The notes below the pieces were generated by a model. The model saw nothing but the letters and a program-made list of their open reading frames with translations, was not told the origin of the DNA and ran no database searches. Of a DNA stretch of 64,000 nucleotides, positions 1,915-49,193 are shown one piece after another (the first letter of the stretch is position 1; each line of letters opens with the position of its first letter). This stretch comes from a virus (lineage: Duplodnaviria; Heunggongvirae; Uroviricota; Caudoviricetes), in the IMG/VR virus record IMGVR_UViG_3300042322_000140, positions 64,228 through 128,227 of that record, one strand, 5' to 3'. The translations under genes were made by a program, and so were the position numbers.

Positions 1915-3609
1915 TTAGTTGAAACCTTTTCTTCCAGCTTCGTCTAATTCAATCATTACGAAACGGGTTAAATCTCTAACGTGAATATCTGCGATATTAA
2001 ATGCCCAGAACTCTTGTCCGATTTGTTTCATAGAAGACATTACATCTCCAGCTTTTCTGTAATCATAACGACCATTAGTAGTTCCCCAATAGCACATTTC
2101 GCCTTGTGGTTTTACTAAGTAGATGTTAGCTCCAGAATTACCACCGTCTACTAAAGTAGCACCTTTTGGTAAAGCTTTGTTATTAGAATACATTTGATCT
2201 TCTACATCCCAAATAACCATTGAGTAAGCTGTTGGTGATAAGTTTTCTGGGTGGAATCCACCTGCTAAACGGTCAACACCTTCCATCATGTTCAATGATG
2301 TATCTTCTTCAATTTCTACACTTCCAATTCCTGGAATGAATACTTTTGTAAAACGGATTGGCACATACTCTAAGTTAAATGGATCATTTCCACGAACTGG
2401 GTTAGGTATAGTTCTTTCTGTTCCTAAGAATGTGTTCAATGATGCATTTTGAGAGTTTACTTCATCAGAGAAGATCTCTAAAATGTTTTGGTATGCATAT
2501 TTACCACATTTGAATTTCAAACGTCTTTCAACGTCTTGTTTGAATGGGTTGATACGGAATACATATTCTGCAGCTTCTTTCAAGTGATCACGAGTGATTC
2601 CACCTGGACGACCATACTTAACAAGTTTTCCACGTCTCAATTGGTGCCATAAACCTTCGTTTAATCTAGCAACTCCATTTGAATCACGAACTGTAGCGGC
2701 ACGTTGGAATAAAAGTTTTTGAGCAGTTAAACGCTCTAATTCTCTCATTGTCAAGAACTCCATTGTAGCTCCGATTTTTGCATTTTTCATATCTGGAACT
2801 TTCTTACCACCTTTAGTGATTAAGTTAGTCAATACTGCATAATCGTTACCACCAAATTCAGATTGTAATTTGTCTAAGTAAGATTTAGATTGTGCGTCTG
2901 CTCCAGAGAATGATTTAGAATCAGCCATACCTGTAATGTAAGCTTCAACTCCTGATGCAGATCCTAAACGGAACTCACATCTCATTGTACCTACTGTATC
3001 TGGCATATCAAAGTGCGAGAAGTTAGTACCTCTTTCTCCTAAGATAGCATGTCCTACTTTAAAGTATTGAATACCTTTAGATAAGTTAGAAGCTAAGAAC
3101 CAAGTGCTCTTATCATTGTCTGCTAATTTTACTGTGTGTTCGAATCCTTCACCTACAGCTACTACAGGCTCTTCACCAGAAACGATGATTTGTTGACCGT
3201 AGTATTTATCATTTGATAATACATCTCCTGTTGTAAAAGATCTGTTTAATACAATTTTAAAAGTACTTCCATCAACACCTGGGTAAGCTTGGCTAGATGT
3301 ATCACGAGTTGTATAGCAACCTTTGTACTCTTCTACAGCGATGTCGTATGTGAAACCTCCGTCCCATCCATTAACTTCAAGGATAGCTTTGTTTTGTAAT
3401 AATTCTCTAAGAATACCGTAGCTTCTTACTGCTTGTTTTCCCCACAAGTTCATCAAACCTAAGTGATGCTTGTTTGGGTCTTCTTTGTACCATGAGTAAA
3501 GTGAAGGTAAGTCTTGTGCACCACCGATTGAAGAAACTGTTTTCTTGTCTGTGAACATTATTACTTGGTCTCCATTTACAACGAAGGGAATGTTTTGTTG
3601 TGTTACCAT
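1915..3609 (-). CDS. putative major capsid protein
   Basis: 564-aa ORF directly downstream (minus strand) of terminase, portal and acidic scaffold. This is the canonical TerL-portal-scaffold-MCP order. The call rests on synteny only. Confidence 0.45.
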   Translation of the reverse strand: MVTQQNIPFVVNGDQVIMFTDKKTVSSIGGAQDLPSLYSWYKEDPNKHHLGLMNLWGKQAVRSYGILRELLQNKAILEVNGWDGGFTYDIAVEEYKGCYTTRDTSSQAYPGVDGSTFKIVLNRSFTTGDVLSNDKYYGQQIIVSGEEPVVAVGEGFEHTVKLADNDKSTWFLASNLSKGIQYFKVGHAILGERGTNFSHFDMPDTVGTMRCEFRLGSASGVEAYITGMADSKSFSGADAQSKSYLDKLQSEFGGNDYAVLTNLITKGGKKVPDMKNAKIGATMEFLTMRELERLTAQKLLFQRAATVRDSNGVARLNEGLWHQLRRGKLVKYGRPGGITRDHLKEAAEYVFRINPFKQDVERRLKFKCGKYAYQNILEIFSDEVNSQNASLNTFLGTERTIPNPVRGNDPFNLEYVPIRFTKVFIPGIGSVEIEEDTSLNMMEGVDRLAGGFHPENLSPTAYSMVIWDVEDQMYSNNKALPKGATLVDGGNSGANIYLVKPQGEMCYWGTTNGRYDYRKAGDVMSSMKQIGQEFWAFNIADIHVRDLTRFVMIELDEAGRKGFN

Positions 3610-18964: not shown

Positions 18965-20503
18965 ATGTTAAAAATAGGAAAAGAAGCTAAGGAGTCCCTG
19001 ATTAGGGGTATAAATACAGTTTCAGATGCAGTCAAGACCACAATGGGTGCAGAAGGTAAAACTGTTATTATAGAAAATAAGATGGGCTTTAAACCTCATA
19101 TTACTAAGGACGGAGTAACAGTTGCGGAGAGTATTCACTTAGAAGACGCATATGAAGAGCTTGGAGCCAAGCTTATCAAAGAGGCAGCAAGAAGAACTGT
19201 AGACTTAGTAGGAGATGGTACAACAACAGCCACTGTTATCACACAAGAGTTGATAAACAAGGGTATTGAAAAATTAGATTCTGGAATATCTCACGTAGAA
19301 TTAAGAGAAGGCATGGCCATAGCTCTTGAGGATGTTAAGCTAGCTTTGAAATCTTTAAAAAAAGACGTAGGAGAAAAAGAAGTAAAACAAATAGCTACTA
19401 TATCTGCAAACAATGACGTAATTGTAGGGGGGATTATTGCAGATGTATACAAAAAAATTGGAGTAGACGGAACGGTTGATGTACAAGAGGGGGTAGCAAA
19501 AGATACTACAGTTAACTATATTGAAGGTATGTCTTTAGACAGAGGTTGGGCCTTACCACATTTTATATCAGATTCAAGTACAGCAACAGCTGAAATTAAT
19601 GATACATATATCTTGATTTATGACGGTAAGATCAACGCAGTTAATGATATTGCAGAGCATGTAAGAAAAGCTCAATCAGAAGGTAAAGGTTTACATATAT
19701 TTGCAGAAGATTTAGATGAAGGTGTAATGACAATGCTTGTAAAGAGCAAAATGCAAGGAACATTTAGAGTTACTGTAACGATGAACCCAGACTTTGGTGC
19801 AAATAGAACGAGTATCCTTGAGGATCTCGCTATTTTCACAGGGGCTCAAGTCTTCACCCCCAAATTTTCGACAAAGGTTGTTCTGGGGTATGCAGTAAAA
19901 ACCATCTCTGATAAAAGCAGAACAGTTATTATTACAGATACGGGCAGCCAAGAACTTTTAGATAGAATTGAAGAGTTAAAGACACAGGTAGAAAACACTG
20001 AAGATGTTGTAGATAAAGGCAAGCTAGTAAAAAGATTATCAAATCTTAGAAATGCCGTAGCAATTGTAACAGTTGGTGGTGTAACAGACCTGGAAGTAAA
20101 AGAAAAGAAAGATCGGATTGACGATGCAGTAAGTGCAGTTAAATCTGCGTTAGAGGGAGGTTATGTAGCAGGAGGAGGATCAACATTATTGTTTATTTCC
20201 AAGTATAGAATGAAGAAAAAGTTGAAAGGCGGCAAAAAGGATGGTTACGAGTTGGTAAAAGCAGCTATACAAAAACCATTCGAACAAATTTTAGCAAATG
20301 CAGGCTTAGAAAAAGACAAATACGAGCCAAGACTAAGAGTATATGGAAAAGGCATTAACGTTAAGTCAAGAAAGGTAGAAAATTTACTAGAAAAAGGAGT
20401 TATAGACTCTGCAAAAGTAGTAGAAGTCTCCCTAGAAAATGCAACTTCAGTGGCATCTCTAGTTTTACAAACAGATTGTATAATAACAAGCACAGGACTA
20501 TAA
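18965..20503 (+). CDS. groEL: GroEL-family chaperonin (Cpn60) homologue
   Basis: N-terminus aligns by eye to GroEL: GINTVSDAVKTTMGAEGKTVII...PHITKDGVTVAESIHLEDAYEELGAKLIKEAARRTVDLVGDGTTTATV, plus EGMSLDRGW. 512 aa, with no GGM tail. Confidence 0.85.
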   Translation: MLKIGKEAKESLIRGINTVSDAVKTTMGAEGKTVIIENKMGFKPHITKDGVTVAESIHLEDAYEELGAKLIKEAARRTVDLVGDGTTTATVITQELINKGIEKLDSGISHVELREGMAIALEDVKLALKSLKKDVGEKEVKQIATISANNDVIVGGIIADVYKKIGVDGTVDVQEGVAKDTTVNYIEGMSLDRGWALPHFISDSSTATAEINDTYILIYDGKINAVNDIAEHVRKAQSEGKGLHIFAEDLDEGVMTMLVKSKMQGTFRVTVTMNPDFGANRTSILEDLAIFTGAQVFTPKFSTKVVLGYAVKTISDKSRTVIITDTGSQELLDRIEELKTQVENTEDVVDKGKLVKRLSNLRNAVAIVTVGGVTDLEVKEKKDRIDDAVSAVKSALEGGYVAGGGSTLLFISKYRMKKKLKGGKKDGYELVKAAIQKPFEQILANAGLEKDKYEPRLRVYGKGINVKSRKVENLLEKGVIDSAKVVEVSLENATSVASLVLQTDCIITSTGL

Positions 20504-20504
20504 T

Positions 20505-20750
20505 ATGAAACCATTATTTCAAAGAGTTCTACTAAAAGTAGAAGTATTAAAACAACAAGAGCTGTTCGGAGAAGACCAGACCAAGCCAAAAGTACATCTA
20601 GTAGATATAGCAGATGATTGTCATGGCTCTATTCAAGGGTTAATAGGATCAGAAATCTTGTTCAATGGAGTTATAGCAGAAGTTGTAGAAGAAACAGAGG
20701 AATACAAATTAGTATTGACACACGAAACAAACTTATTAATGAAGTACTAA
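20505..20750 (+). CDS. groES: GroES-like co-chaperonin (Cpn10)
   Basis: 81 aa. N-terminal MKPLFQRVLLKVEV resembles GroES IRPLHDRVIVKR. C-terminal EEYKLVLTHETNLLMKY resembles EEVLIMSESDILAIVEA. Start overlaps the groEL stop. Confidence 0.55.
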   Translation: MKPLFQRVLLKVEVLKQQELFGEDQTKPKVHLVDIADDCHGSIQGLIGSEILFNGVIAEVVEETEEYKLVLTHETNLLMKY

Positions 20751-20873
20751 CCCCCCTATAAGGCACAAGTTAAGCCCTGTCGCTGTTGGGGTGTCCCCGG
20801 CAGTTCTGAATCCAGCCAAAAGGCGTAGGTGGTGTTAAGGTACAGGTACAATTAGGGTATTAAATAAAAAAAT

Positions 20874-21236
20874 ATGAATAGTAGTTTAACAACAAATAAC
20901 AGTAGCTTGATAGGTATAAGTGGTTCCGTACTTGGAGGTTATTCTGGTACAAGCACAGCAACAATCGCAACCCCTTATGGACTTGGGATTGGTATAGAAC
21001 CGTCAACGGGGTATATAACAATTAAAAATAATCAAATGAGACAAGTAAAAGTAGCACTCTTCAATGTAGTAAGAGACCCAGAAACTAACAATATCACAGA
21101 CTCTACTTTTGCAGAAGAGTTTTGGGTAAAACAAAAAGCAGACGTATCTCTAGAGTTAGCCACTATGACTCACTTAAAGAGATTAATTGACCCAGATAAA
21201 GAGGTCATAAGAGAAATTTATTCTATATACTTATAA
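20874..21236 (+). CDS. hypothetical protein
   Basis: 120-aa ORF. Confidence 0.45.
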   Translation: MNSSLTTNNSSLIGISGSVLGGYSGTSTATIATPYGLGIGIEPSTGYITIKNNQMRQVKVALFNVVRDPETNNITDSTFAEEFWVKQKADVSLELATMTHLKRLIDPDKEVIREIYSIYL

Positions 21237-22264: not shown

Positions 22265-22577
22265 AAAAAAATTAGCCCTCTTCCGGTGCACTGGTAAGGA
22301 TCGAAGATGGAGATTACTGATACGATTGAAATAAAAACCTCTTCGGAGTTATCGTATAGGCGAGGATGCTCACCGGAACGTATGCCGGCACAGTTGTAGC
22401 TCTGGGGATAATTCAAAAGCTATAAAATATTGGGGGCAGGGCAAAACCTAGACAGCTTCTAAGCAGGGTTAAATCTGGACAGCCCCCATAATATTGCGTT
22501 AAAGTGTAAAGGTTGCATTCTGGTCTCATAAGTCAGAGGGGTGGTTCGATTCCACGTTACGCTACTAAATATAAAGT
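22265..22577 (+). ncRNA. unclassified structured RNA-like intergenic element
   Basis: ORF-free and GC-richer than the flanks. Long-range helices include CTTCCGGTGC/GCTCACCGGAAC, TGGGGGC/GCCCCCA, GATACGAT/ATCGTATA, and a CUC-UUCG-GAG tetraloop hairpin. A GGTTCGATTCC T-loop-like motif lies at 22543-22553. No cloverleaf could be closed. Confidence 0.35.
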
Positions 22578-22848: not shown

Positions 22849-23103
22849 ATGGCAGAAGTAGAGGCAATAAAATTTTCAGCAACATGGTGCGGTCCATGTA
22901 GAGTAGTATCAAAACAATTAGAAGGCCTAGACTTCACAAACATAGATATTGACGAAGACCAAGAGGGGCTAGCAAAAAAATCAAATGTAAGAAGCGTTCC
23001 CACAATTATCTTTATGAAAGATGGAGAAGAAGTAGGAAGACATTCAGGATTAATAACAAGAGAAGAATACATAACCAAACTAGAAACATTTAAAAATCAA
23101 TAA
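22849..23103 (+). CDS. trx: thioredoxin-like protein
   Basis: Canonical WCGPC active site (FSATWCGPCRVV) in an 84-aa protein. Confidence 0.8.
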   Translation: MAEVEAIKFSATWCGPCRVVSKQLEGLDFTNIDIDEDQEGLAKKSNVRSVPTIIFMKDGEEVGRHSGLITREEYITKLETFKNQ

Positions 23104-48529: not shown

Positions 48530-48554
48530 GAGGGTTCGAGTCCCTCTACCTAAT
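48530..48554 (+). other. orphan tRNA-like T-arm plus 3' acceptor module
   Basis: GAGGG-TTCGAGT-CCCTC followed by TACCTAA. No 5' partner was found at tRNA spacing. Confidence 0.3.
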
Positions 48555-48590
48555 CGAAATAGTTTGTTGATGTATTATTGAATTTTGTTT

Positions 48591-48856
48591 GGACGGGAGT
48601 TCGATTCTCCCCACCTCCACAAGAGTTTCCTTGAACTATAAACAAGGTGGTGGAGTCGCTGAGAAATCAGAGACCTAACAGTTTGAGGGAGCGTTCTGTT
48701 TAAAAACGTAACAATAGGGGGTGACTGGTTTTGACAGCAATCTAGTAGGTAGTAAGTAGAACTAATTTCAAATTTAAACGACAACGTTTACCAACTTGGT
48801 GGGGTGCAAAGAATTGCAGCTTAACCACGCCTAGGGAGAGCGACATCTCCCTAACT
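48591..48856 (+). ncRNA. candidate circularly permuted (two-piece) tmRNA-like gene
   Basis: Acceptor piece: 48591 GGAC, GGGAG-TTCGATT-CTCCC (T-arm), CACCTCC-A (3' acceptor strand, 48612-48619). Coding piece: 48717 GGGGGTG-A-CTGGTTTTGAC-AGC, which matches the tmRNA 5' consensus GGGGnUGAnnnnGGnUUCGAC. GGGGGTG pairs with CACCTCC (6 Watson-Crick pairs plus one G·U). Tag-like frame ...AAC GAC AAC GTT TAC ... ATT GCA GCT TAA (N-D-N-V-Y...I-A-A-stop, ending at 48824). Then hairpin TAGGGAGA-gcgaca-TCTCCCTA (48832-48853). The tRNA-Met 5' end at 48857 would define the 3' end. Confidence 0.4.
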
Positions 48857-48930
48857 GGTCCTATAGCTCATTCGGTTAGAGCAACTGACTCATAATCAGT
48901 AGGTGCTTGGTTCGATTCCAAGTGGGACCA
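48857..48930 (+). tRNA. tRNA-Met: tRNA-Met(CAU) (elongator or Ile-lysidine type)
   Basis: The full cloverleaf was folded by hand. Acceptor GGTCCTA/TGGGACC (one G·U). U8 A9. D-stem GCTC/GAGC. Anticodon stem ACTGA/TCAGT with loop CT-CAT-AA. Variable loop AGGTG. T-arm CTTGG-TTCGATT-CCAAG. Discriminator A. CCA is not encoded. Confidence 0.9.
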
Positions 48931-49193
48931 CTTAGCAAGGCATAAACGATAAGGAATACTCGTCACAGGTTTATGTTGAGTTGCAGACGGGCCGAAATGC
49001 TTACGGTTAACAAGGCTTAACTCATAAAGTCTAGAGAGCAAAATCTAACGAGTGACTGATGGAAAGACATCAACATGGGAAAGTAGCAGATAAGGTCGCC
49101 CCTGAACTGTGAGTGGGACTAATGTGACGGTCAATCGTAAAGGCTCAAGGTACGTAACAAGTAGTAGTTGGTTGGAGTAAGTGACTTAGCATC

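Follow-up and report, generated by a model that had tools for sequence, protein, structure and literature searches.

A phage GroEL gene directly followed by a diverged and shortened gene related to Cpn10/GroES: a probable GroEL>GroES operon in marine phages

Does a phage GroEL come with a co-chaperonin of its own when the small gene behind it carries no recognisable family name? This question is raised by a stretch of 64,000 nucleotides (nt) from a virus of the Caudoviricetes (positions 64,228 to 128,227 of the IMG/VR record IMGVR_UViG_3300042322_000140; hereafter, the window), in which a GroEL gene is followed by an open reading frame (ORF) of 81 amino acids (aa). The surrounding 64 kb is clearly phage, encoding a large terminase, a 925-aa portal, a 564-aa structural protein and a helicase as well as a UvsX-like recombinase, a ribonucleotide reductase and a family A DNA polymerase, and the G+C content of the window is ~33%. 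A megablast search against known phages revealed no near-identical deposited genome for the region; identical proteins are present on metagenomic contigs up to 128 kb. On the basis of current results, the two genes probably make up a group I chaperonin operon of the phage, arranged GroEL>GroES, with a diverged lid of the Cpn10 family. Their positions are as follows:

18965..20503, plus strand: GroEL gene, 512 aa, an intact phage group I chaperonin (GroEL/Cpn60) without the Gly-Gly-Met (GGM) C-terminal tail
20501..20507, plus strand: junction of the GroEL gene and the 81-aa gene, TAA-T-ATG with a 1-nt spacer, read from the sequence itself
20505..20750, plus strand: gene assigned to a diverged, shortened co-chaperonin of the Cpn10/GroES family, 81 aa; public label 'hypothetical protein'

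Judged by its sequence, the 512-aa protein is unambiguously an intact group I chaperonin homologous to GroEL, and public sources call the identical protein 'chaperonin GroEL'. It matched Pfam Cpn60_TCP1 (PF00118; E-value 8.8e-55, 186.7 bits with a cut-off of 34.3), PHROG 5725 'chaperonin groEL' (1.8e-126) and the NCBIfam models PRK12849 (4.7e-138, 460.8 bits, cut-off 352) and PRK00013 (443.8 bits, cut-off 397). The strict equivalog TIGR02348 was not reached (437 versus 582), as is expected because this viral copy of GroEL is diverged. Among PDB sequences, the top match was a reconstructed ancestral Fibrobacteres-Chlorobi-Bacteroidetes chaperonin (6e-114), and E. coli GroEL and mitochondrial Hsp60 matched at ~1e-90 (E. 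coli structures at ~2e-90). Alignment with E. coli GroEL revealed the GDGTTTATV motif and the retention of D52, D87, T89-91, D398 and D495; the inter-ring contact positions differ between the two proteins. The protein would be expected to act as an ATP-hydrolysing GroEL. Its C-terminus reads ...ITSTGL without GGM repeats, a tail that is not universal among GroELs: it was present in 0 of the 17 GroELs paired with the 81-aa family and in 30 of 45 viral copies arranged as GroES>GroEL. A preliminary description of this DNA had called the protein GroEL-like on account of DGTTTATV and had noted the missing GGM tail; both statements hold, the former being borne out by the Pfam, PHROG, NCBIfam and PDB matches together with the conserved ATPase residues. 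The same description gave the order as EL then ES, which agrees with the ORF coordinates, and called the two ORFs overlapping, which is incorrect: the junction reads ...GGA CTA TAA T ATG AAA..., and 1 nt separates the GroEL stop codon from the start of the 81-aa gene. A spacing of 0-2 nt was also observed in loci L004, L005-L007, L013, L017, L092 and L094. Such a short TAA-T-ATG spacer suggests that translation of the 81-aa gene is probably coupled to termination of GroEL. A scan for sigma-70 promoters and intrinsic terminators, whose relevance to a host of the Bacteroidota type is doubtful, found sites no more common than in shuffled sequence.

The 81-aa ORF is a real gene under purifying selection. 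Its protein has 23 homologues (43-89% identity), all of them unnamed or annotated as 'hypothetical protein', and an exhaustive profile search of 1.84 billion representatives matched just 10 to the family, eight of which were new members (~29-55% identity); thus, the family is small. Pairwise dN/dS (nonsynonymous over synonymous substitution rates) for the gene was 0.06-0.14 with synonymous sites near saturation, pairs with L014 being left out because an indel offset makes them invalid. Two database matches of the 81-aa protein were rejected as noise: one to PHROG 26116 / phiKZ gp281 (E-value 5.7e-4 against PHROGs, ~1 by tblastn) and one to a 'mitogen' in PDB (0.2-0.3).

The predicted structure points to a co-chaperonin. 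Two AlphaFold2 models built from different alignments had pLDDT (predicted local distance difference test) values of 82.0 and 85.2, and both showed a small beta-barrel with one low-confidence loop. When the second model was compared with PDB by Foldseek, the top 21 matches were all GroES, Hsp10, Cpn10 or Cpn20 chains (template modelling score ~0.5-0.6). In BFVD, a library of predicted viral structures, the named top matches were nearly all viral co-chaperonins, mostly 'Co-chaperonin GroES', with sequence identity of at most 23%. In these models the 81-aa protein is predicted to have the GroES beta-barrel fold.

Profile comparison by hhalign is consistent with this fold. The 81-aa family aligned with five diverse Cpn10s at a probability of 90% (E-value 1.6e-6), residues 1-81 against GroES 3-95. 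In this end-to-end alignment, MKPLFQRVLLKV is paired with IRPLHDRVIVKR and KLVLTHETNLLMKY with EVLIMSESDILAIV at the termini of the family, so that the N-terminal and C-terminal strands of the 81-aa protein match those of GroES and the 'GroES-like termini' noticed in the preliminary description are confirmed. In GroES, it is these two strands that make up the ring interface. Against L003 alone, a protein of Vibrio phage 1.244.A, the E-value was 1.9e-7, and L003 is itself a bona fide Cpn10 (Pfam Cpn10 3.3e-9 over its full length, PHROG GroES 6e-11). Homology of the 81-aa family to Cpn10, as judged from these profiles, therefore appears sound when it is taken as transitive via L003. Among 20 small-ORF families flanking viral GroELs, Cpn10 gave the sole near-full-length alignment to the 81-aa family under both hhalign option sets; canonical viral Cpn10s were the best out-of-family match under one of the two sets, and under the other, two short local matches scored slightly better. 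None of the 18 other small-ORF families near viral GroELs aligned over more than 23 columns with either the 81-aa family or the five-sequence Cpn10 set (best E-values 0.008 and 0.05), and no further cryptic Cpn10 family could be found among the 20. In reciprocal hidden Markov model searches with the 81-aa family and Cpn10, 17 of 20 and 11 of 20 of the best out-of-family hits were members of the respective other family, with formal p-values that are inflated by near-duplicate loci.

Gene order links the small gene to GroEL across related viruses. We examined 80 viral contigs encoding relatives of the window GroEL. The 81-aa family lay directly downstream in all 18 viral loci whose GroEL was at least 45% identical, 46 more distant loci had a canonical Cpn10 upstream of GroEL, and 19 loci had neither type of co-chaperonin. 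In L024 and L025, which carry the closest GroELs outside the family, a recognisable 89-aa Cpn10 occupied the same downstream position. Even in distant members of the family (P0023, P0029, P0030 and P0031, down to ~30% identity), the 81-aa gene began 0-2 nt after a tail-less GroEL; the single exception to this spacing among the relatives examined had one small ORF between the two genes. No additional Cpn10 of canonical type turned up when the rest of the 64-kb window was searched. The evidence supports the view that the 81-aa protein is a GroES-fold, Cpn10-related protein, strongly diverged and shortened, that is genetically coupled to GroEL. The proposal of the preliminary description that the small ORF encodes a GroES-like partner of GroEL thus gained support from the fold, profile homology, synteny and weak reciprocal matches.

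How might such a lid meet its ring? Three segments are relevant here:

20544..20591, plus strand: mobile-loop equivalent, residues 14-29 of the 81-aa protein, VLKQQELFGEDQTKPK (from profile and family alignments and low pLDDT)
20613..20642, plus strand: roof-hairpin equivalent, residues 37-46, DDCHGSIQGL (from alignments and model)
19547..19744, plus strand: apical-domain groove segment of GroEL for co-chaperonin and substrate, equivalent to E. coli 199-264 (from alignment to E. coli GroEL)

The loop was the segment of lowest pLDDT in both models (~70), as expected of a flexible loop. Its residue F21 is invariant in the family; most members have a hydrophobic residue just before it (a few have Pro), and acidic residues commonly flank it. 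The roof hairpin is shortened by ~6 residues, with a short helix predicted in its place; C39 does not vary in the family and D38 hardly does. The D-x-C motif is also found in the recognisable viral Cpn10s L003 (Vibrio phage; GDDC) and L081 (an IMG/VR viral contig; GDKC). A roof hairpin is also missing in T4 gp31 and in the viral GroES of GroEL>GroES contigs (PMC5649160), so its absence is no bar to membership in Cpn10.

On the GroEL side, the window protein differs from E. coli in the groove by Y199W, Y203H, L234A, L237V, E238R, L259M and V264K and keeps F204 and V263; a groove is still present, in altered form. Each of the 17 GroELs that accompany the 81-aa family has Trp199, Ala/Ser234, Met259 and Lys/Arg264, and most have Arg238, whereas GroELs paired with a canonical Cpn10 keep Tyr199, Leu/Ile/Val/Met234, Glu238, Leu259 and Val/Ile264. 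Among 47 of the latter, only that of Cellulophaga phage Calle_1, whose Cpn10 is also diverged, departs substantially, a few others differing at position 199 only. In the loci without a partner, the groove is largely canonical. These positions reportedly line the site that binds the GroES loop, and the changes in them are suggestive of a co-evolved, possibly private, interface between lid and ring. An intermediate state was observed in L023 (3001-4796), whose GroEL is 45% identical to that of the window, deviates in its nucleotide-binding motif, which reads GDGSTATT, and has changes in part of the groove (W199, T234, N264); the 81-aa ORF downstream of it matched the family at just 1.5e-7 and does not have the invariant loop Phe.

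Several observations weigh against the reading of the pair as ring and lid. No co-chaperonin match could be found for the 81-aa protein in Pfam (PF00166), NCBIfam or PHROGs (PHROG 3188); Pfam Cpn10 was approached by only 2 of its 24 relatives, at an E-value of ~0.08, and by none of the 17 in a broad alignment, and profile searches of PDB sequences with the family yielded no Cpn10. The profile signal rests mostly on the bridging L003, without which the E-value was 0.0025, and against 39 rather uniform canonical viral Cpn10s it was only 0.012 to 0.13. Because of this dependence on one bridge, profile-profile homology to canonical Cpn10 is not strong by itself. In addition, the mobile loop is 5-6 residues shorter than that of E. 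coli GroES and reads E-L-F-G-E-D, the Gly plus three hydrophobic residues (Gly-Ile-Val-Leu type) being absent. With the GroEL-binding motif missing and the loop shortened, the lid might fall short of reaching and capping the GroEL ring. It should also be noted that the co-variation of the groove belongs to a single clade and represents one evolutionary event, not 17. As for the presence of a Cpn10 fold, on which the preliminary description let its proposal depend, direct family searches failed, whereas structure prediction and profile-profile comparison show Cpn10; sequence-family searches alone would, in part, have misled on this ORF.

How far do these points favour other explanations? The absence of matches in Pfam, PHROG and NCBIfam is what would be seen if the small ORF were a chance open frame, an idea that we considered together with decay of the GroEL gene to a pseudogene. 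Both have next to no probability and are refuted by the conservation data: the small ORF has over 30 distinct homologues, which agree in length and share invariant residues, and the low dN/dS given above, and GroEL is full length with all catalytic residues and has identical copies on contigs up to 128 kb. A GroES-like beta-barrel could also do something other than act as a lid: it might, for instance, be an adaptor, regulate or inhibit the phage GroEL, or be an unrelated morphogenesis factor that is merely co-transcribed. We consider this unlikely, as the top matches in all three structure libraries were specifically co-chaperonins, the alignment to Cpn10 runs end to end and includes the terminal strands of the ring interface, the canonical downstream Cpn10 of the neighbouring clade holds the same gene position, and the D-x-C motif of the roof stub is common to the 81-aa family and recognisable phage Cpn10s.

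The small protein might instead be a lid for host GroEL, like T4 gp31, leaving the phage GroEL to work lidless in the manner of the chaperonin of Pseudomonas phage EL. This appears less probable still. In every context examined, the 81-aa family was found directly downstream of GroEL or one small ORF away, never apart from it; its loop does not have the motif that binds canonical grooves, and its own GroEL carries an altered groove; and the window GroEL is far nearer to cellular GroEL (~1e-90) than to EL gp146 (1.8e-29). A phage-encoded pair of GroEL and Cpn10-family lid remains the most probable explanation.

If the two proteins do work as such a pair, the 81-aa protein would probably form a ring-shaped lid, presumably a heptamer, held together by the conserved strands at its two termini, and dock on the apical domains of the phage GroEL through its shortened mobile loop. 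The anchor of this loop appears to be an acidic-flanked hydrophobic-Phe dipeptide in place of Gly plus three aliphatic residues, and the groove of the partner GroEL would be reshaped to match it (Trp199, a small residue at 234, Met259 and Lys/Arg264). The altered loop together with the reshaped groove makes it probable that the pair forms a private interface, distinct from that of host GroEL/GroES. A stronger version of this idea, in which a minimal GroES with a short, Phe-anchored loop and a remodelled groove constitute an orthogonal machine that makes no use of host GroES and escapes titration by host GroEL, is possible and is put forward here only tentatively. The pair would likely serve to fold phage proteins while the phage infects its host, probably a marine member of the Bacteroidota; such a host is suggested by the affinities of GroEL, the capsid protein and the neighbouring ORF and by the low G+C content. 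By analogy with gp23 and gp31 of T4, it is reasonable to suppose that the capsid or portal protein could be the substrate. T4 gp31 enlarges the cage through a longer loop, and the loop of the 81-aa protein is shorter, so the rationale of a bigger cage is not simply transferable.

Is such a pair new? The preliminary description had considered a phage GroEL-GroES pair in EL-then-ES order unusual, which does not agree with the available data: 257 phage-collection records match GroEL, annotated pairs exist, and Marine et al. (2017, ISME J; PMC5649160) reported that 133 of 337 virome contigs with GroEL also had a co-chaperonin, 70 of the 133 being in GroEL>GroES order and falling into two GroEL clades. 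Their GroEL>GroES contigs had a GroES without a roof hairpin, a conserved downstream ORF and structural genes like those of Cellulophaga podophages (PMC5649160). The present locus shares with them the EL-then-ES order, the reduced roof, the marine viral source, a GroEL diverged from bacterial GroEL, an apparently conserved downstream ORF and Cellulophaga-podophage-like structural genes. On the other hand, Marine et al. detected GroES by BLAST and conserved-domain thresholds and found the Gly plus hydrophobic tripeptide usually conserved (PMC5649160), whereas the 81-aa family would fail their stated thresholds and does not have their loop motif. Thus, phage GroEL>GroES operons have been known since 2017, and only the unusual reduced lid variant is new here.

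Several relatives help to place this variant. The 89-aa Cpn10 of L024 and L025 resembles the 81-aa protein in lying directly downstream of a tail-less GroEL (41% identity, the closest outside the clade) and in its similarly shortened roof; it differs in matching Pfam Cpn10 at 7.7e-25 and in having a full-length mobile loop with G-I-I-I, and its GroEL keeps the canonical groove (Y199/L234/L237/E238/L259/V263/I264). L003, the 'GroES-like protein' of Vibrio phage 1.244.A (AUR97726.1), is the closest recognisable Cpn10 by full-length profile and shares with the family the N-terminal KPLF and the roof stub G/A-D-D-C ... L-I-G. Unlike the 81-aa protein, it is recognised by Pfam Cpn10, its 93 aa include a mobile loop of full length (S-G-L-V-L-T), and its gene has no GroEL gene beside it. 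Flavobacterium phage immuto (annotated groES-groEL) and Cellulophaga phage Calle_1/phi38:1 are cultured phages of marine Bacteroidota that also have GroEL and GroES/Cpn10. Their GroELs are 38% identical to that of the window; they differ in their ES-then-EL order (with an ORF between the genes in Calle_1) and in their recognisable Cpn10s, and the immuto GroEL keeps every groove residue of E. coli. T4 gp31 (PDB 1G31) has 111 aa and a mobile loop longer than that of GroES, and works with host GroEL; to our knowledge, T4 has no GroEL. The 81-aa loop is shorter than that of gp31, and the phage described here brings its own GroEL. The chaperonins of giant phages (Pseudomonas phage EL gp146; OBP, AR9) are, like the window GroEL, Cpn60-family proteins encoded by phages, but only distant relatives of it: EL gp146 (6tmt) matches at 1.8e-29 and E. 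coli GroEL at ~1e-90. No co-chaperonin accompanies these giant-phage proteins, which reportedly function without encapsulation (PMC7185714).

Our data close an annotation gap, namely a marine phage clade (genomes up to ~128 kb, hosts probably Bacteroidota) with a complete chaperonin pair of which GroEL alone is named publicly. The general picture that many marine phages carry GroEL/GroES in either gene order is unchanged. If the interface is confirmed, the 81-aa protein would be a natural minimal co-chaperonin with non-canonical docking, bearing on the requirements for GroES binding and on the design of orthogonal pairs. If the orthogonal reading were true, some viral chaperonins regarded as 'GroEL only' would have cryptic co-chaperonins missed by sequence searches.

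Other features of the window also deserve mention. The 564-aa structural protein (1915-3609, minus strand), probably the major capsid protein, shares 47% identity with the structural proteins of Cellulophaga phages phi4:1 and phi17:2. Its identity to a protein of a human-gut phage (csAssE-Sib) that is annotated as major capsid protein is 38%, which connects this group of marine phages with Bacteroidota phages of the gut. The 81-aa gene is followed by a 123-nt spacer (20751-20873, plus strand), which is single-copy in the window, has 47% G+C compared with ~33% for the genome, and is 86-98% identical in the close relatives L010-L013 and L022 despite near-saturated synonymous sites in the adjacent gene. 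Its consensus fold has multiple stems, a hairpin of 9-10 bp and three compensatory pairs, based on only about four distinct sequences. The spacer had no Rfam match and a single-sequence z-score of -0.23, and is missing in relatives further removed; a conserved structured RNA is one possibility, a regulatory element another. The next ORF (20874-21236, plus strand; 120 aa) belongs to no PHROG family but shares 38% identity with a protein of Flavobacterium phage immuto annotated as hypothetical. ORFs of similar size (112-119 aa), matched by size and position only, occupy the same downstream position in L004-L007, and the 120-aa ORF may be the counterpart of the conserved one that Marine et al. 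(2017; PMC5649160) described behind GroEL>GroES.

Further downstream, an Rfam tRNA match was found at 22495-22564 (plus strand; 32.2 bits, gathering threshold 29, E-value 6e-4) with no ARAGORN call, and ARAGORN reported a doubtful 'tmRNA*' with a 20-residue tag peptide at 48530-49101 (plus strand), inside which a tRNA-Met (48857-48931) is nested. Finally, a thioredoxin ORF (Pfam PF00085) lies 2-3 genes downstream of the chaperonin pair in L005-L007, L094 and L095. In the window, an 84-aa ORF with a WCGPC motif (22849-23103, plus strand) has a position similar to that of the thioredoxin in these relatives, to which it is likened by this motif only. This arrangement suggests a conserved neighbourhood of protein-folding and redox genes.

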